Sequence record: MK295204
DNA: 64,000 nucleotides
DNA from: Shigella phage vB_SdyM_006
Direction: 5' to 3' (one strand)
The position numbers were made by a program, and so were the translations under genes. Within the stretch, counting starts at the first letter, position 1; each line of letters starts with the position of its first letter. Shown here in pieces: positions 47,592-56,381 of the stretch. The notes under the pieces were generated by a model. The model searched no databases. It was not told where the DNA came from and was given only the letters and a program-made list of their open reading frames with translations.

Positions 47592-50500
47592 ATGACTTTA
47601 AATAAATCACTTAAAGCAACGTACGGACTTGATGCCTCTAATGAAAAAGTTATAAATGTCGGATTAGCTGACAAAAATACTTTAACAGATGGCGTTAATG
47701 TCGAATTTTTAATTCAAGAAAACACAATCCAAGCATACGACAAAAATCGTGGATATGAAAAAGGCTTTGCTGTTATATTTGAAAATAGAATTTATGTTTC
47801 AAATCAAAAAATAGAATCTCCAGCTGGAGATTTTGAGCCTCATAAATGGTTTTCTTTACGTGTAGACCCTAAATGGGACACGGTATTTGAAACCGTAGCA
47901 TCAGGTCAAATTATAACATCAGGACAGTTTATTGCAGCTAATACGTCAATAAACGATTTATATTTTAAATTGCCTAGAAAACCACAACCAGGTGATACAA
48001 TTTGTATCAAAGAGGTCTCTGGTAATTCAGGCTATAAGTTCCTTAAAATAGGTAAAACCGATAATAATATTTTATGGAACGGAACTAATGTTGAAGAATT
48101 ATATCTAACACGTCCGTATTCGCAAACTTATTTTATATTTTCTGGGAACGTTTGGAATGTATTTCAAATAGAGCACGAAGATATTGGTAGAATAATATCT
48201 ACTTCACCATTAAAGCAACAAGTTTCTTCTGGAGAGAGATTATATAGATTATCCAATACTGGTCCTATCAATATCATGTTACCTAAATATGCTATGCATG
48301 GTGATGTTATTGAGATGTTTGATATTGATGGATTAACTTCAATAAATCACTTAACTCTTTACACGTCTGAAGGGTCTGGGCATGCTATAGGAACTTTAGG
48401 ACAATCTAAATTAGAAATAAGAACTATTGGTAACGGGCGATTAGTATTTGATAGTTCTAATAATCTATGGAGATTATGGGACGGCGATATAAGAACTCGT
48501 TTAAAAACTATCAAAGAAGATCGTAAACTATTACCTAATGAACAGGTTCTTGTCTATGGGATGAATAATACAGTTAAAGAAACCGTCACTCTAACGTTAC
48601 CTAGAAATATTGCTGTCGGTGACACAGTTGAGATTTCTTTAGGTTATATGAGAAAAGGCCAGACAGTTATCATAAAGACTGAGGGCGATGATATTATTGG
48701 GACTGATAAAACATTATTACAATTCCCTAAACGATCTCAGTATCCGCCTGAAATGACCTGGGTTGAAGTAAAAGAACTTGTGTTTAATGGTACTGATGAT
48801 TATTTACCTTATTTAAAATTTGCGTATGTAGAAACATTATCTGATTTAGGGTGGGCAGTTCAACATTATCGTCCTAATGTTGAGCGTGTAGATTTTAAAA
48901 ATCCAGAAAGAATCGGATTGATAGCATTAGCTACTCAAGATCAAGCAAACAAAGATCATGAAAACAACCCAGAAAAAGAATTGGCTGTAACACCATTTAC
49001 TTTGGCAAATAGAGTTGCTACAGAAGAACGACGTGGTATTGCTAAAACAGCAAAAACTTCTATGGTCAATCAAAACTCAAATGGAAAATTTGAAGATGAC
49101 ACAATTGTCACACCTAAAAAATTAAACGAACGAACAGCTACAGAAGAACGACGTGGCCTAGCCGAAATTGCTACTCAAGAAGAAACAAATACAGGTAAAG
49201 ATGATACGACTATTGTTTCTCCATTAAAACTCGAGAACAGGAAAGCCTCAGAAACTTTATCTGGTATTGCTAAAATAGTCCCATCTAAAGGAACGCCAGG
49301 AACACAGCGTGATAAACAAGGAACTGGTGTTTATAATTACACGGATAATAAGACTATTGTTTCTCCTTCAGCTATACATGAGCTTTTAAGTACAGAAAAT
49401 TCTCATGGTGTTGTTTATTTAGCTTCTGAAACTGAAGTTATTGAAGCACCAGATATGGACCCTAAATTTCCTGTTGCTGTAACTCCGGTTCAATTACATA
49501 AGAAAACTGCTACAGAAGATAGAATAGGTTTCTCTCAAATCGCTACACAAGAAGAAACTGATGAAGGAACTGATAATTTTAAATTTATAACACCTAAAAA
49601 ATTAAATGATCGAAGATCAACAGAAACTTTAGAAGGTATCTCAAGATACGCTACTTATGAAGAGTTTAAAAAAGGTGATTCAAATTTAATATCCGAGCCT
49701 AATAAAATAAAACAGTTTTTACAAGAAGCAAGAATAAAAGTTGTTCCTGAATCTGGAATAGTTTTTACTGGTAATATTTGGGACACATGTAATTTTGATA
49801 TCAAACCTTCAACTGAAGTTGATAGAGGGACATTAAAATTATCAACTCAAGGCCAAGCTAATACTGGTGAAGATGATACAACAGCAATTACACCTAAAAA
49901 ATTACATAATAAAAAATCAACTGAATTGGTTGAAGGTATAATCCAACTTTCTAATTACGCTGAAACAATAGCAGGTGATGTTAATAATAAAGCAATATCT
50001 CCTCAGAATTTTGTTTTAGCTGTTCAAACAGAAAATAATGGATTAGAAGCCTCTACTTCTTTACGTGGATTTGTTAGACTGTTAGATGGTGCTAGTATTT
50101 GGCAAGGAACAGATGAATCTGGTAGTGACCCGGATAATGAAGACTTTTTGCATAATGGATATGCAGTATCTCCACGAGAATTAAATAAAGCTTTAAGTCA
50201 TTATCTTCCTATCAAAGGAAAAGCAGTTAACTCTACTTTATTTGATGACTTAAAAACTTCTGATTTTATTAGAAGAAACATAGACCAAGAAATTGATGGG
50301 GATATGACTTTTAATAACCCAGTTATTCTTAAAGATACATTAGTTTCTACAAGTTCTGGTAAATTTGAATCACTAGAAAGTAAAACGGTTTCTGTCGGTG
50401 ACGGTACTAAAGGTTCAATAAACTTTTTGTCTGCTACACCATGGAAAATTGATGTACAAGATGATTTCAAAATTAACAATGTAAAAATTGATAAAGATGA

Positions 50501-51248
50501 AGTTATCCATTCTAAAGGATTAGAAACAATTTCTCATGTTGACACTTCAGAATATAGATTAAATGGTAAAACATTTATTTCTGGACAAGGTACTATCAAT
50601 GTAGGTGATGCTGAATCTCAAATTAGATTCCAATCCAAAAATCCTAATGATGTTAGAATTTCTGGCTCTACAATTATTGTTAATACCAATTTAGAAGAAA
50701 AAGGTAATAAGCACTTTATTAATCGTAAACAAGATACCGTTGACGGAGATATTGAATTTACTAAACCAGTTAAAATCAATATCCAAGAAAATATGGTTGA
50801 AGTTTCCGAAGGTATATTTGTTGCCAAAATAACTTCTAAACAAGAATATGAGAAATATCCAGGTATTGCAGTTCCTAAAATAGACCAAGAAACACAAAAA
50901 GTTATTGATTATACTTATGTTAAAGGACCTGGTACACTTACTCAATATGGTGATACTAAATCTTATACATACAGAATCTGGGCTCCACAAGCTTTAGGTC
51001 AAGAAGATAATCATAACAACTATTCATTATGGATGCAGGTTTATAATCCAGTTAAAGGAGAATTTGATGCATGGGGTAGAATATACACATCTCAAAATCC
51101 ACCAACTGCTGCTGAAATAGGAGCTGTGTCTTCATCTGGTTCTACTTTCGAAACACTTAAAGTTAATCAATGGTTACAAGTTGGACCTGTAAGAATGGTT
51201 CCAGACCCAGTAACTAAAACTGTAAGGTATATATGGATCGATGAGTAA
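47592..51248 (+). CDS. 34: long tail fibre proximal subunit gp34
   Basis: 1218 aa; N-terminus matches T4 gp34 pattern (GLDA..K.INV.LAD...TDGVNV..LIQENT.Q.YD..RGY). Confidence 0.9.
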   Translation: MTLNKSLKATYGLDASNEKVINVGLADKNTLTDGVNVEFLIQENTIQAYDKNRGYEKGFAVIFENRIYVSNQKIESPAGDFEPHKWFSLRVDPKWDTVFETVASGQIITSGQFIAANTSINDLYFKLPRKPQPGDTICIKEVSGNSGYKFLKIGKTDNNILWNGTNVEELYLTRPYSQTYFIFSGNVWNVFQIEHEDIGRIISTSPLKQQVSSGERLYRLSNTGPINIMLPKYAMHGDVIEMFDIDGLTSINHLTLYTSEGSGHAIGTLGQSKLEIRTIGNGRLVFDSSNNLWRLWDGDIRTRLKTIKEDRKLLPNEQVLVYGMNNTVKETVTLTLPRNIAVGDTVEISLGYMRKGQTVIIKTEGDDIIGTDKTLLQFPKRSQYPPEMTWVEVKELVFNGTDDYLPYLKFAYVETLSDLGWAVQHYRPNVERVDFKNPERIGLIALATQDQANKDHENNPEKELAVTPFTLANRVATEERRGIAKTAKTSMVNQNSNGKFEDDTIVTPKKLNERTATEERRGLAEIATQEETNTGKDDTTIVSPLKLENRKASETLSGIAKIVPSKGTPGTQRDKQGTGVYNYTDNKTIVSPSAIHELLSTENSHGVVYLASETEVIEAPDMDPKFPVAVTPVQLHKKTATEDRIGFSQIATQEETDEGTDNFKFITPKKLNDRRSTETLEGISRYATYEEFKKGDSNLISEPNKIKQFLQEARIKVVPESGIVFTGNIWDTCNFDIKPSTEVDRGTLKLSTQGQANTGEDDTTAITPKKLHNKKSTELVEGIIQLSNYAETIAGDVNNKAISPQNFVLAVQTENNGLEASTSLRGFVRLLDGASIWQGTDESGSDPDNEDFLHNGYAVSPRELNKALSHYLPIKGKAVNSTLFDDLKTSDFIRRNIDQEIDGDMTFNNPVILKDTLVSTSSGKFESLESKTVSVGDGTKGSINFLSATPWKIDVQDDFKINNVKIDKDEVIHSKGLETISHVDTSEYRLNGKTFISGQGTINVGDAESQIRFQSKNPNDVRISGSTIIVNTNLEEKGNKHFINRKQDTVDGDIEFTKPVKINIQENMVEVSEGIFVAKITSKQEYEKYPGIAVPKIDQETQKVIDYTYVKGPGTLTQYGDTKSYTYRIWAPQALGQEDNHNNYSLWMQVYNPVKGEFDAWGRIYTSQNPPTAAEIGAVSSSGSTFETLKVNQWLQVGPVRMVPDPVTKTVRYIWIDE

Positions 51249-52359
51249 TATAATGGTTGAATTCGGCCAAGATTATGTAGGTGCTCAAACGTTTGCAGAG
51301 AACAATGCACTTACATATAAGTTAACTATTAAGGCTAGTAATAAAAACACACAGGGTGAATCCTGTGTGTTAATTAACGATAATCAAATAACAACTGAAT
51401 GCGATACTGGTATTAATGTTTGGGTCATTAATAATATAGGTAAACTTGATAATACTATGTGTTTTGATGTATCAACAGAATCTGGTATAACAGCATTTAT
51501 AACATTTTTGAAAGAACAAACTTCTGGAATAATTTGTTTAGCTTCATCTAACGAATTAGATTCAACTCAAGTCTTAGCTGATTATATGAAATCTATAGGT
51601 TCTGCTTCATGGAATAATTTTATGATTTCTAAAATCAAAACAGTGTCTTATGCAGCAGTCTATCGTCCAGAATTAAAATCCATTGTTCTGGAATCTATAC
51701 AATATTCTGATGGAATTAAAGAAGATGAATTACTTGAGTTAGAAACCATTTTTGATTCTAATAATTCTATAGGAATAACAGGATTTCCTGGTTCAATCGT
51801 ATATGATTATAAAGAATACACGTCAATTGAACAAGATTATAAAAAATGGCCTACTAATCTTTTAAATAACAAGCTTTCTGATTATGGTCTTAAACCTGGC
51901 GATTGGGTTTCTTTGAGTGCTTCTATATTTGGAGATAAAGAATTAAAAGATGACGGTGGATGGACTAGAATAGATTGTAGATGGGTATTTGGTAATGCAT
52001 GGAAACAATCATTTTATTTAGAAAGTACATTGAAAGGGAATTATCCTGTTCAGTCTATGGTTAATCCTGGTATCTGGGAATCTAAAACAGTTTATTCTCA
52101 AATACCAGAAGGTGTAGATGGATTTGTTATAATAGCTTCAAGATATAATTCAGACTTAGGCCATTCTGCTGTAAAAAATGTTGCATTCGGAAGAGCTGCA
52201 GAACCTATAATAGAAAAATCTGATAGACAAATAGGTATAAATGGTATTAGAAATTCTTTTGTAAAAGAGGAAGAACAAAAAGTAGGATCGTTATTAAGTT
52301 TGTTAAATCTTAAAGACAAATCCGACACAGTTTCTTCTATAAACTTTAAAGAAATATAG
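51241..52359 (+). CDS. 35: long tail fibre hinge protein gp35
   Basis: 372 aa (T4 gp35 372 aa); follows gp34. Confidence 0.7.
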   Translation: MSNIMVEFGQDYVGAQTFAENNALTYKLTIKASNKNTQGESCVLINDNQITTECDTGINVWVINNIGKLDNTMCFDVSTESGITAFITFLKEQTSGIICLASSNELDSTQVLADYMKSIGSASWNNFMISKIKTVSYAAVYRPELKSIVLESIQYSDGIKEDELLELETIFDSNNSIGITGFPGSIVYDYKEYTSIEQDYKKWPTNLLNNKLSDYGLKPGDWVSLSASIFGDKELKDDGGWTRIDCRWVFGNAWKQSFYLESTLKGNYPVQSMVNPGIWESKTVYSQIPEGVDGFVIIASRYNSDLGHSAVKNVAFGRAAEPIIEKSDRQIGINGIRNSFVKEEEQKVGSLLSLLNLKDKSDTVSSINFKEI

Positions 52360-52525
52360 TAACATATAGTTATTAATTTATTACTTAATAGTTATATAGA
52401 ATATACTAGACTTTTAATAAATTAATTTACTAGAGTTACTAATTTATTACTTAATAGTTATATATAATATAAAGAACTTAATAAAAATAATAAATTCTGG
52501 GAGCTTTGCTCCCAGTTTTCTTTAG
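52358..52525. repeat. AT-rich intergenic repeat region, copy 2 (rearranged)
   Basis: 52358..52441 near-identical to 15663..15748; 52441..52515 similar to 15574..15650, including hairpin. Confidence 0.8.
52497..52515 (+). terminator. hairpin inside repeat, compensatory variant of 15634..15650
   Basis: Stem CTGGGAGC, loop TTT, stem GCTCCCAG, then TTTTCTTT. Confidence 0.5.
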
Positions 52526-52547
52526 AAAATGCTCTTTTATAAATAGT

Positions 52548-52555
52548 ATAAAGAA
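52548..52555 (+). promoter_or_regulatory. late promoter TATAAATA for gene 36
   Basis: Exact TATAAATA 11 nt before gp36 ATG. Confidence 0.5.
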
Positions 52556-52565
52556 AGGAGATTAT

Positions 52566-53030
52566 ATGGCAGATCTTAAAAGAGGAAGTACTGCTGGAGG
52601 AGAATTAATCCTTACACAAGGTAATTTTCCATTAATTCCAGTAGGAAATTCCTTATATTTTAATAAGCATAAAGTCTATACCGAACACGATAAGCCTACA
52701 GCAGAAGAAGTTGATTCTGTTTCGGCATCTAAAGGTGGAGAATTTAAAGAAAGAGTAATTTTTAAAGAATTACAGGTAGGGAAACAAGACCCTTTAATTA
52801 TTAAAGACCATTCTATAGCTGGGACTGAAATAATTCTTAAACAATTAGAAATTAAAAACTTAGAAAAATCATTACTAGTTCTTAATCCTGATAATCCAGA
52901 ATTACTTCAAGTTCAATCAATGAAAACAGATAGATTGGTTTTAGACACAATATCAACTCAACCTAATCATGCAGTTAGATATGACCAAGTGGTTCTTGTT
53001 GGAGATATTATAGATTTTGGAGAATTCTAA
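52566..53030 (+). CDS. 36: long tail fibre distal connector gp36
   Basis: MADLKRGSTAGGELILTQGNFPL matches T4 gp36 N-terminus; track ORF has 20-codon extension; AGGAG RBS. Confidence 0.85.
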   Translation: MADLKRGSTAGGELILTQGNFPLIPVGNSLYFNKHKVYTEHDKPTAEEVDSVSASKGGEFKERVIFKELQVGKQDPLIIKDHSIAGTEIILKQLEIKNLEKSLLVLNPDNPELLQVQSMKTDRLVLDTISTQPNHAVRYDQVVLVGDIIDFGEF

Positions 53031-55123
53031 TGGCAAAAATTCCAAGAATACAATTTAAAAGAACTAAAACACCAGGAACAAAGCCTTCAAAAGATATTTT
53101 AGCTGAAGGTGAATTAGCAATTAACTTAGCTGATAGAACTCTTTTTACAAAATCCGGAGATGATATTATTGATCTTGGCTTTGCTAAAGGCGGCACAGTT
53201 AATGGAGATATTAATCAAGAAGCTGGAAATTTTACAACCAATGGGTCAATGACTGCTAAAACATACATTGATATAAAAAATAGCTTAAATGACAAAAAAA
53301 TATTTAGGCTTTCTTATGAAGGAGATCGTGGCGCTTTATTGTCTGTTAATGAAGGCGACAATAAATGGAAAACTATACTTGTTCCATTAGACGAAGATGG
53401 GACTAAAACTATAGCTACTCGTGAACACGTAGGAAAAATGGTTTCTACTAATGATGGAGAAACCAAATTAAGGGCTCCAAACCAGACTAACTTATTGATT
53501 GCAAAAGACAATAAAGAACTTGTTTGGTACGATGGATCCACTAATAATAGAATGGTTAATTTTGGTGCAGGTGGTTTAGATTTAGCCCACAAAGGTAGTG
53601 ATATTGTCGGAGTTAGTTTATACAAAAAAGATGGCAATCAGGTTCGAATAGAAACCCATGCCCATTCATCGGCCCTTATGTTAGCTTTTGCATATAAAGA
53701 TTCTGCAGGAAATAATTCATATGTAATCAATATGCCAAAAGAAAATGGTATATTAGCTACACAAGGATGGACAGATGCCAAATACTATAAAAGGAATGAC
53801 AGCCCATCGTTCAAAGAATACGTTAATGTTTTTCATAATACCACAGGGTCTTATACTCAATTAGGATATGGTAATGCAGGTGCTACATGGTCAGTTAACA
53901 CAGGCGGCAATTGGTATATATTAAAACATCCCCTAGCTAATGGTACAGTTGCTTCTCAAGAATGGAGTCAAGCTACGCATTACAATAAATCAGAATCTGA
54001 TAATAGATATGTTAAAATTGGTATAGGTGGTGGTTACCCACTACATAATTATAATGCAGGTGGCCATGGCTATTCTACTTGGAATGAAAAAGGTGTACGT
54101 CAAGCTTATATAGGATTCGCAAATGATGGTTCTACAGAATTTACCATTAGTAACGAAAAAGGATCTAATAGTACTATTAACCTTAAAGCGGGTAATGTTT
54201 TAGTTAATGGTGTAACTATCGCCTCTCAAAACTGGGTAATTTCTAATTTTTATAAAAAAACAGAAACATATAATAAATCTGAAATTGATGGCAAAGTTAA
54301 TGGACGATTAACACAGGCCCAAGGTGATGCTAGATATTATACTAAAACCGATTCTGACGGTCGTTACTTACGAATGAATATCACCAACAAAACTAGTATG
54401 CCGGTATTCTATAGAACAGCAAACTATGGAGATGATGCAAACCAACGTGATTTAAATTACGCAGGATTTTATAGAACTAACGGATTAAACAGCTTACCGA
54501 GTCTCATAATTCATGTTCCTCATAGTAGTGGGCTAGCTCATGGAAGAGGTATAGGATTTGACTACGGTTCAGCCGGATATGGGATTTATACTTATGCATA
54601 TGATGCGAATGGAAAATATCAAGGTCAAAAATCTATCGCATTGAGCGAGTATCACTATTCAAAAACTGTATCAGATGATAGATATTACCAGAAGTCTCAA
54701 ACATATTCTAGAGCAGAAGTTGATTCTAGAGTAAACGGAAGATTAACTCAAGCCACGGCGGATGGAAGATACGCGTATAAAGGTGGTGCTAATGCTCAAA
54801 ACTTTGGTGCTAACATAGTTGATGCTGCTGACGTTAATATTCGTTCAGATTTAACTGTAAAATCAAATTTAGTTAAAATAAATAATGCTATACAAACTGT
54901 TAAAACATTAACAGGGTATACATATGATTTAAAATTAAACGATAATACATATAAACAATCTGCAGGTATAATAGCACAAGATGTACAAAAAGTTCTACCA
55001 GCATTAGTTACAGAGGACTCTTTAGGATTATTATCTGTTAATTATAATGGTTTAACTGCAGTTCTTGTTAATGCTATAAATGAATTATCTGAAAGATTAG
55101 AAAGATTAGAACGAGGTGTATAA
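53030..55123 (+). CDS. 37: long tail fibre distal subunit gp37 with C-terminal intramolecular chaperone domain
   Basis: N-terminus IQFKR.K..GT.P....LAEGELAINL.DRT.FTK matches T4 gp37; C-terminus has SDLTVKSNLVKI and GIIAQDVQKVLPALV pattern. Confidence 0.85.
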   Translation: MAKIPRIQFKRTKTPGTKPSKDILAEGELAINLADRTLFTKSGDDIIDLGFAKGGTVNGDINQEAGNFTTNGSMTAKTYIDIKNSLNDKKIFRLSYEGDRGALLSVNEGDNKWKTILVPLDEDGTKTIATREHVGKMVSTNDGETKLRAPNQTNLLIAKDNKELVWYDGSTNNRMVNFGAGGLDLAHKGSDIVGVSLYKKDGNQVRIETHAHSSALMLAFAYKDSAGNNSYVINMPKENGILATQGWTDAKYYKRNDSPSFKEYVNVFHNTTGSYTQLGYGNAGATWSVNTGGNWYILKHPLANGTVASQEWSQATHYNKSESDNRYVKIGIGGGYPLHNYNAGGHGYSTWNEKGVRQAYIGFANDGSTEFTISNEKGSNSTINLKAGNVLVNGVTIASQNWVISNFYKKTETYNKSEIDGKVNGRLTQAQGDARYYTKTDSDGRYLRMNITNKTSMPVFYRTANYGDDANQRDLNYAGFYRTNGLNSLPSLIIHVPHSSGLAHGRGIGFDYGSAGYGIYTYAYDANGKYQGQKSIALSEYHYSKTVSDDRYYQKSQTYSRAEVDSRVNGRLTQATADGRYAYKGGANAQNFGANIVDAADVNIRSDLTVKSNLVKINNAIQTVKTLTGYTYDLKLNDNTYKQSAGIIAQDVQKVLPALVTEDSLGLLSVNYNGLTAVLVNAINELSERLERLERGV

Positions 55124-55716
55124 TGGCAGTAACAGGACCACGAGTCGGTAGTTCTGCTAAAGCAGAAACCGGCCTAGCTAGTATGAAGGCCGCCGGCGCT
55201 AAATTAGGTTTAAGTGTCCCTTTTAAAATGTCACAAATGATTGGTAAAAGTGTAGCAGTTAAATGTATTATGGGTTCAGCACAGAAGCCAGTGTTTAATC
55301 AACAAATCTATTTTGTCTATGCATCAAAAGGGGTACTACAAAGTCCGAGAATACCAAGTACATTGAACATTGGTGATATACCTGAATCTAACCCGCCATT
55401 GAACACTACTTATAAAATTGAAGATGTGGAAGTTATCTCTATATACCGTTCTGATGATGTGGCTAAAACTAAAAATGAATATGGTTTTGGTATTCAAACA
55501 AAAGATTATAAACAACCGTGTAATGAGATAGAAGTTGAAATTAAAGGATATAAAGCTAAATTGAAATTAGTGTGGCGTGTTGGGGGTTATGCAAAGCCAA
55601 CATTTTATGTAAGCACTCGTGATGTTGGTAATAACAACTGGCAAGACGTTAGAGATGTTTATGATTTCTTACAAGCTGGCAAAGAATACGAATTTATTAT
55701 TAAAAAGGTGAGTTAA
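55123..55716 (+). CDS. hypothetical protein at the gene-38 position
   Basis: 197 aa between gp37 and holin t; no glycine-rich motifs; position only. Confidence 0.4.
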   Translation: MAVTGPRVGSSAKAETGLASMKAAGAKLGLSVPFKMSQMIGKSVAVKCIMGSAQKPVFNQQIYFVYASKGVLQSPRIPSTLNIGDIPESNPPLNTTYKIEDVEVISIYRSDDVAKTKNEYGFGIQTKDYKQPCNEIEVEIKGYKAKLKLVWRVGGYAKPTFYVSTRDVGNNNWQDVRDVYDFLQAGKEYEFIIKKVS

Positions 55717-55757
55717 CAATATTTTGCGCATAATTTAATTAGTTTAAGAGAACAACT

Positions 55758-56381
55758 ATGGATAAAGGCTTTTTTCTAAGCCTGCTTGATACATTGTTTA
55801 AAGACGCCGATGGAAAATTAATCCTTTGGCGTCTTCTTTCTATAGGAGTACTTGGGATTGGATGTTTTTTATATGTCGCTAGAAATGAATTTTTGGAATT
55901 ATATAAAAACACTAGATATGAGGCTTATCAACAAGTTCAAAAACAAGAAAGAGAACTTAAATTTGAAAAAGCTGTTGTAGACCAATTGCAAATAGTCCAT
56001 GTATCATCTGAAGCAGAGTTCAGTGGAATAACTGAATTTAGACCTGTAGGATTAAATTATTTTTTTGATTTAATTGCTTATGAAGGGAAACTTCCTGAGG
56101 AATTAAACTCAAAAAATTTAGGAGGCTGGCCTGTAGATAAAACTGCAGAAGAATATATCAATCATATGAATGGACATTATTATACATCAACAGAACATTT
56201 TAGATTACCAACAAGGACTAAAATAGAAAATAAATGGTTGTTTTCTTGTCCTTATTATAATTTAAATAATAATTATGCCGGGAGTATATTTATGATGTGG
56301 CCTGAAAAACCTGAGATAAATGAAGATAGACTTAATATTATATGTTCTCAGGCTTCCAGGACCATAGGTAGGACTAAATAA
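55758..56381 (+). CDS. t: holin T
   Basis: LDTLFKD, QLQIVHVSSEAEFSGITEFRP, LNYFFDLIAYEGKLP, SCPYYNL match T4 holin. Confidence 0.95.
   Translation: MDKGFFLSLLDTLFKDADGKLILWRLLSIGVLGIGCFLYVARNEFLELYKNTRYEAYQQVQKQERELKFEKAVVDQLQIVHVSSEAEFSGITEFRPVGLNYFFDLIAYEGKLPEELNSKNLGGWPVDKTAEEYINHMNGHYYTSTEHFRLPTRTKIENKWLFSCPYYNLNNNYAGSIFMMWPEKPEINEDRLNIICSQASRTIGRTK

Follow-up and report, generated by a model that had tools for sequence, protein, structure and literature searches.

A probable S16-type tip with an orphan gp38 head domain in the long tail fibre of Shigella phage vB_SdyM_006

Distal tail fibre tips in T4-like phages

In phages T2, T6 and S16, the distal long tail fibre subunit gp37 bears an intramolecular chaperone (IMC) and is capped by a second protein, gp38 (PMC7917993; PMC6851490; bioRxiv 10.64898/2026.05.12.724579). 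The last 113 residues of S16 gp37 constitute this IMC, which is autocleaved between the two serines of DLNVS^SDRRIKK (the caret marks the cleavage site), uncovering the gp38 docking surface (PMC7917993). According to the CASP13 account of Dunne and Leiman, one gp38 sits on the gp37 trimer in the S16 complex, with three conserved tryptophans, one per helix of its N-terminal bundle (PMC6851490). Here we analyse genes 37 and 38 of Shigella phage vB_SdyM_006 (sequence record MK295204) in a stretch of 64,000 nucleotides, referred to below as the window; all coordinates are positions in it, and the genes of the locus lie on the + strand unless stated otherwise. Megablast assigned the locus to the genus Bragavirus, the T4-like phages of Proteus, with 98% identity to Proteus phage phiP4-3 across 81% of a 3.9-kb query.

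A conserved N-terminal adaptor followed by an unrelated specificity domain is already known from the gp38 of RB43: of its 174 aa, the first ~50 are T6-like, while the ~120-aa C-terminus is unrelated and contains host-range mutations at Q100 (Trojet 2011, PMC3157838). The C-terminal subtypes of gp37 have been described as pairing with N-terminal subtypes of gp38 like lock and key (PMC3157838). In the T5 fibre protein pb1, a lysine five residues further on, Lys1269, activates Ser1264 at the scissile bond (PMC4690869). The gene order of the window, g34-g35-g36-g37-g38-t, is that of T4; however, T4 gp37 has a receptor-binding tip of its own and no IMC, and T4 gp38 is a chaperone that is absent from the virion and not related to the gp38 of the window.

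We estimate at roughly 80% the probability that the fibre of vB_SdyM_006 ends in a tip of the T2/S16 type, in which an IMC-matured gp37 is capped by a gp38 adhesin with an orphan, cassette-exchanged receptor head. The capping of an IMC-matured gp37 by a modular gp38 is established biology, and the sequence is already public and annotated as an adhesin; the only leads of note are the orphan head fold and a tryptophan-free docking pair.

The C-terminal chaperone of gp37

The gp37 precursor ends in ...DVNIR-SDLTVKSNLVKI...AGIIAQDVQKVLPALV...NAINELSERLERLERGV. Pfam Peptidase_S74 (PF13884) matched aa 606-660 with an E-value of 3.2e-11 and 43.8 bits against a curated cut-off of 22, and more than 15 PHROG tail-fibre families matched aa ~590-695. 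The final ~116 residues aligned with the S16 gp37 construct (PDB 6F45_A; E-values of 1.7e-13 and 1.4e-12), the sole solved relative, and the alignment pairs DVNIR^SDLTVKS of the window with DLNVS^SDRRIKK of S16. The predicted scissile bond is R605|S606, with Ser606 (codon 54845-54847) as nucleophile and Lys611 (codon 54860-54862) at the i+5 spacing of Ser1264/Lys1269 in T5 pb1. Both residues were kept in every IMC-bearing Bragavirus gp37 examined (window, phiP4-3, PM2 and Pm5461). The gp37 C-termini of the window and phiP4-3 differ by 15 synonymous codon changes and one non-synonymous change, which points to purifying selection.

An initial annotation of the window, made from the sequence alone, had described a T4-like gp37 N-terminus and a chaperone-like domain in the last ~90 residues, with an SD..K motif, a GIIAQDVQKVLPALV block and a helical tail. 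This description was accurate: PHROG 1699 matches aa 1-82 at the N-terminus, and the 92-residue IMC is supported by the 6F45_A alignment and by the Peptidase_S74 search that had been suggested there, which returned its match at aa 606-660, above the cut-off, rather than no S74 or chaperone profile at all. The feature had been drawn from 54835, 10 nt before the codon of the predicted scissile serine. Since gp37 carries its own S74-type IMC, trimerisation of the fibre is probably independent of a chaperone of the T4 gp38 type, in agreement with the initial proposal. The view that the IMC departs from the T-even plan has to be abandoned, as the same arrangement is documented for T2, T6 and S16. 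Polyubiquitin sequences also matched the IMC; these matches were rejected as an artefact of summed repeats (3.4 bits per stretch).

The chaperones of K1F endosialidase and T5 pb1 share with that of the window the Peptidase_S74 domain, the Ser/Lys(i+5) pair at the domain boundary and the C-terminal helical tail. In those proteins, however, receptor binding or enzymatic activity resides in the mature C-terminus itself, whereas cleavage of the gp37 of the window would, as in S16, make a docking site for a separate adhesin. In the window, the segment aligned to that just before the S16 cleavage site, the predicted mature tip, comprises 24 residues, 22 of which are identical in PM2 and Pm5461. After removal of the IMC this tip is presumed to be the docking surface for gp38, by analogy with S16 (PMC7917993).

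The 197-aa protein is a gp38 adhesin

The protein encoded directly downstream of gp37 had initially been regarded as an unrelated occupant of the gene-38 slot. This does not hold for its first 44 residues. Pfam Gp38_N (PF21721) matched aa 1-40 (E-value of 1e-15; 57.9 bits against a cut-off of 25), PHROG 1121 "tail fiber adhesin" matched with an E-value of 1e-23, covering only aa 1-59, and a profile of Bragavirus N-termini matched S16 gp38 (6F45_D residues 1-45; E-value of 2.5e-7). S16 gp38 was reached only with this profile: a phmmer search of the PDB with the single gp38 sequence gave no match. The alignment of the 44-aa N-domain, used as a profile in a further search, retrieved nothing but short fragments. 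With tblastn the N-terminus was found in 427 phage records, and the N-domain is 100% identical in PM2 and 86% in Pm5461. As a whole, the protein shares 99.5% identity with its phiP4-3 counterpart, named "tail fiber adhesin" in RefSeq. As the N-terminal 44 residues represent the canonical T2/S16 gp38 attachment domain, the protein belongs to the gp38 adhesins and differs from those of T2 and S16 in its head.

The remaining initial statements on this protein were supported. The absence of T2-type glycine-rich adhesin motifs was confirmed with the profile of the glycine-rich/polyglycine-sandwich domain (PF05268), which did not match the 197-aa protein even at E<=1, while an S16-type gp38 used as control scored an E-value of 4.6e-71; the glycine content is 8%. 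It had also been said to lack T4 gp38 character, and no T4 gp38 or tail-fibre-assembly profile matched it in Pfam, PHROGs or NCBIfam. A receptor-binding or host-range role, offered initially as a possibility, is most likely. That the protein is instead a non-virion assembly chaperone like T4 gp38 is suggested by its position and by an older label, "distal long tail fiber assembly catalyst", in GenBank MG696114 and KP890823. We consider this very improbable, given the silence of the assembly profiles, an N-terminus that is an adhesin attachment domain, a gp37 equipped with its own chaperone, and the re-annotation as "tail fiber adhesin" in RefSeq. Reading the protein as a gp38 adhesin corrects two annotation errors, namely the T4-style "assembly catalyst" label and the "unrelated ORF" label (ORF, open reading frame).

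The association of the two domains was examined in 23 IMG/VR loci encoding a Gp38_N protein. In 21 of the 23, the upstream ORF ends in ...R^SD..K followed by an IMC of 92-112 aa, whichever of two adhesin classes is present: a long class with the glycine-rich motif (GRM) domain (249-289 aa; 19-27% Gly) or a short class without it (160-197 aa; 8-14% Gly). The exceptions were L013 and L015, in which the ORF before the Gp38_N gene ends without the SD..K motif; in L015 the gp38 frame is truncated to 38 aa. The gp38 of the window (197 aa, 8% Gly, Gp38_N only) falls in the short class. It resembles S16, and T2 and T6, in having its gene directly downstream of a gp37 with a C-terminal IMC and a conserved cleavage motif, and differs from S16 and T2 in lacking the polyglycine-sandwich/GRM domain. 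The same architecture is seen in RB43, RB42 and RB16 (PMC3157838) and in T4-like phages of Klebsiella, Kpn BM7 among them (PHROG 1121): a short protein of 160-197 aa, consisting of Gp38_N as a T2/T6-like N-terminus of ~45-50 aa and a ~115-155-aa head that is not glycine-rich, likewise follows an IMC-bearing gp37 as a modular adaptor with a swapped head.

The orphan head domain of gp38

The C-terminal domain (aa 45-197) had no match in Pfam, PHROG or NCBIfam. With the head as query, a word-indexed search of 5.8 billion proteins retrieved phiP4-3 alone; the full-length query added four other Bragavirus-type gp38s and a protein designated P0002. When 1.84 billion representatives were searched exhaustively with HMMER, only two relatives of the head were recovered, those of phiP4-3 (P0001) and P0002. 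The latter has 206 aa and a head 39% identical to that of the window, shares with it a terminal GKEYEF.IKK, and is encoded on a 48-kb Logan contig in which an S74-bearing gp37, gp38 and the holin follow one another as in the window. Gp38 contains only two cysteines, C48 (55264-55266) and C133 (55519-55521), both kept in P0002, within KCIMGSAQ and KPCN contexts; a disulfide bond between them, or a metal site, is conceivable.

AlphaFold2 models of gp38 reached a mean predicted local distance difference test (pLDDT) score of 55.6 for the full length (8 sequences) and 56.1 for the head only (3 sequences). Only the last ~100 residues attained pLDDT 60-84, with strands, a helix at 173-184 and a final strand; the head is predicted to be a mostly beta domain and is not the polyglycine sandwich of T2/S16. 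Foldseek against BFVD with the gp38 model retrieved only its own family (template modelling scores of 0.31-0.38) and no informative fold match.

Other Bragavirus-type gp38s combine the same N-domain with other heads, one type being common to PM2, P0007 and Pm5461, while P0004 and P0006 have one each. Across Bragavirus, at least four unrelated head types follow the conserved N-domain and gp37 tip. Comparisons among head types with hhalign were marginal or not significant: A versus B gave an E-value of 0.031 (last 25 residues), B versus C 0.0022 and D versus the Klebsiella type 0.0004, the rest being above 0.2. Against the RB43/Klebsiella-type heads, the pooled Bragavirus heads gave 0.047 (51 columns at the end of the profiles, probability 1%) and the window type alone 0.65, hence no demonstrable sequence similarity. 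By eye, the head types have a terminal helix-plus-strand pattern in common, and a very diverged common scaffold may be suggested, although hhalign does not demonstrate it.

It may be argued that gp38 docks as proposed but that its orphan head is not the main receptor binder and serves instead as an enzyme, a cap or a module for a secondary receptor, specificity residing elsewhere, e.g. in the gp37 shaft. No confident fold or function could be assigned to the head, and the shaft is itself mosaic between close relatives. Nevertheless, by analogy with S16 the head would be the distal-most part of the fibre, it is hypervariable while the adaptor is conserved, the equivalent domain of RB43 carries host-range mutations (PMC3157838), and no enzyme family matched it in Pfam or PHROG, which makes this alternative unlikely.

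Proposed docking without tryptophans

The tryptophans W7, W20 and W36, which dock S16 gp38 onto gp37 by fitting from the tips of the helices into pockets of gp37, align to R7, S20 and K35 in the gp38 of the window. They are missing from all eight Bragavirus-type gp38 sequences and kept in most other sampled gp38s, including those of RB43 and Klebsiella phages. The chemistry of docking must therefore differ from that of the solved S16 case. On the side of gp37, the tip IVDAADVNIR lacks the aromatics that precede the cleavage site in other phages (e.g. GDFNDVYIR). We infer from these sequences that polar or electrostatic contacts may have taken the place of tryptophan docking.

A bolder interpretation is that Bragavirus gp38 represents a structurally new class of adhesin, with a head whose fold is new, related neither to the polyglycine sandwich nor to the RB43-type head, and with a trimer-to-monomer interface switched from three tryptophan prongs to a basic/polar pairing of R7/S20/K35 with the Asp-rich, aromatic-poor IVDAADVNIR. 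At present we regard this as possible, though rather doubtful. If true, it would provide an orthogonal "lock and key", allowing heads to be grafted onto fibres without cross-assembly; the tryptophan-less pair of adaptor and tip would be a useful orthogonal connector if its docking chemistry is truly distinct.

Proposed assembly of the tip

The sequence analysis shows the domain identities, the conservation of the motif, the synteny, the cassette boundaries and the orphan status of the head. In the mechanism that we propose, for which cleavage, docking, the 3:1 stoichiometry and receptor binding are carried over from S16, T2 and RB43, the last 92 residues of the 697-aa gp37 precursor (the S74 IMC) would drive trimerisation of the fibre end. 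The IMC would then cleave itself between Arg605 and Ser606, with Lys611 activating Ser606, and so expose the short tip ...GANIVDAADVNIR. One gp38, produced from the next, probably translationally coupled gene, would dock on this trimeric tip through its 44-residue N-domain, with its C-terminal ~150 residues as the outermost part of the fibre, setting the choice of host surface receptor.

Several observations weigh against this mechanism. The IMC motif lacks the usual Arg at +3, where Thr is found instead (SDLTVK versus the usual SD[IR]R.K); all three docking tryptophans of S16 gp38 are absent; and the head models are of low confidence (pLDDT 55-56) with no informative fold match, so that position and analogy are what argue for a receptor-binding role. 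The first two also speak for a degenerate S74 domain that does not cleave itself, in which case gp37 would keep its C-terminus and gp38 would bind differently or not at all. This is hardly probable in view of the S74 score, which lies well above the cut-off, the retention of Ser606 and Lys611 in all four gp37s, and the purifying selection on the gp37 C-terminus.

Cassette exchange and mosaicism

Compared by blastn with PM2, Pm5461 and the Logan contig (L005), the window is similar from 54699/54700 to about 55254-55274, where similarity is lost, returning at about 55731-55757. The conserved span comprises the gp37 tip, the IMC and gp38 codons 1-44 (to codon ~50 versus the Logan contig). Sharp DNA breakpoints lie at gp38 codon ~45 and at the holin gene or shortly before it. 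From about 55731-55757 on, the holin side shows 93-94% DNA identity to all Bragavirus relatives. For the engineering of phages against Proteus this offers a compact, naturally exchangeable, putative host-range cassette of ~470 bp, from gp38 codon 45 to the holin gene, with defined junctions.

In the comparison with Proteus phage SJ_PmiM, a close relative, similarity ends at 54771 and returns at 55734. The gp37 of that phage (L004 2023-4288; 679 aa) has a different ~100-aa C-terminus with no S74 domain and no Pfam match, and no gene 38 was annotated or aligned in the 226-bp gap before its holin gene, as judged from annotation and alignment only, with no ORF listing made. SJ_PmiM is the one Bragavirus without gp38 and it also lacks the S74 domain; IMC and gp38 were therefore gained or lost together.

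A motif of ~25 aa, with the consensus ..Y[NS][KR][SA]E[IV]D..VNGRLTQA....Y, occurs twice in gp37. Its copies, ETYNKSEIDGKVNGRLTQAQGDARY and QTYSRAEVDSRVNGRLTQATADGRY, coincide with homology breakpoints in every Bragavirus comparison, and the motif probably serves as a linker for recombination, much as conserved boxes do in T-even fibre genes. Repeat finding at the DNA level did not recover it; the repeat was seen in the protein and in blastn cross-matches.

The gp37 shaft is mosaic. Between 53967 and 54699 (aa ~313-557) it is unrelated to phiP4-3, save for an 81-bp match at a motif copy (54257-54337; 86%), whereas the flanks are ~98% identical. Shaft positions 53912-54337 match Pm5461 at 78%, and 54353-54737 match Providencia phage PSTCR6 at 85.7%.

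Gene 38 differs from that of phiP4-3 by a single nucleotide, the non-synonymous F58L (1/594 versus 32/1107 in the flanks; Fisher p 2e-5). The near-identical tract extends from 55082 to 56071, with 2 differences in ~990 nt, while its flanks are ~2.5-4% diverged. This pattern would fit a recent exchange that involved the adhesin cassette. PhiP4-3, with the same head as here, was isolated on P. penneri, and P. mirabilis was the isolation host of PM2 and Pm5461, which carry another head; this anecdotal correlation between head type and host fits a role in receptor specificity.

Organisation of the locus

The genes form a long tail fibre locus of the T4 type, running through gp34, gp35, gp36, gp37, the 197-aa ORF and holin t (Table 1).

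Table 1. Positions in the window of the genes, domains and sequence elements of the tail fibre locus.
Feature	Position	Strand	Basis
gp34	47592-51248	+	
gp35	51241-52359	+	
Hairpin resembling a terminator, 3' of gene 35	52497-52515	+	8-bp stem, 6 G-C pairs, then T run; terminator at equivalent site in Pm5461 annotation
Late promoter box, T4 type, TATAAATA, 5' of gene 36	52538-52545	+	Exact match, 21 nt before gp36 ATG; promoter at equivalent site in Pm5461 annotation
Gene 36, long tail fibre distal connector, 154 aa	52566-53030	+	PHROG 1425, E-value 4e-33; length as in phiP4-3 annotation
Gene 37, long tail fibre distal subunit, 697-aa precursor	53030-55123	+	PHROG 19966, E-value 1e-263, full length
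gp37 ~25-aa motif, copy 1, TETYNKSEIDGKVNGRLTQAQGDARY	54260-54346	+	Mosaic junction; blastn blocks with relatives start or stop here
gp37 motif, copy 2, SQTYSRAEVDSRVNGRLTQATADGRY	54695-54781	+	Left edge of exchangeable tip, IMC and gp38 module; phiP4-3, PM2 and Pm5461 similar again from 54699/54700, SJ_PmiM similar up to 54771
Predicted mature gp37 tip, aa 582-605, AYKGGANAQNFGANIVDAADVNIR	54773-54844	+	Aligns to S16 gp37 segment just before cleavage site
Intramolecular chaperone, gp37 aa 606-697 (92 residues)	54845-55120	+	Peptidase_S74; 6F45_A alignment; Ser/Lys i+5 spacing
197-aa ORF (gp38)	55123-55716	+	ATG overlaps gp37 stop
gp38 N-terminal attachment domain, aa 1-44	55123-55254	+	Pfam Gp38_N; profile match to S16 gp38
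gp38 C-terminal domain, aa 45-197 and stop codon, orphan, presumed receptor-specificity head	55255-55716	+	No Pfam, PHROG or NCBIfam match
Holin t, right edge of variable cassette	55758-56381	+	Pfam Phage_holin_T, E-value 2e-48

The box TATAAATA is likely to mark the start of a late transcription unit comprising g36, g37 and g38. The start of gp36 is almost certainly the ATG at 52566, which lies downstream of this box and gives the 154 aa annotated in relatives; the TTG at 52506 in the mechanical ORF list was rejected as an over-extension (52506-52565). The stop of gp37 and the start of gp38 overlap as TAATG, with GAGG upstream, suggesting that the two genes are translationally coupled. Beyond holin t, genes of the asiA/motA region and gp52 follow on the - strand. 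In gp35, aa 57-127 gave a match near threshold to Pfam ILEI/FAM3 "interleukin-like EMT inducer" (E-value of 1.6e-5; 25.8 bits against a cut-off of 27).

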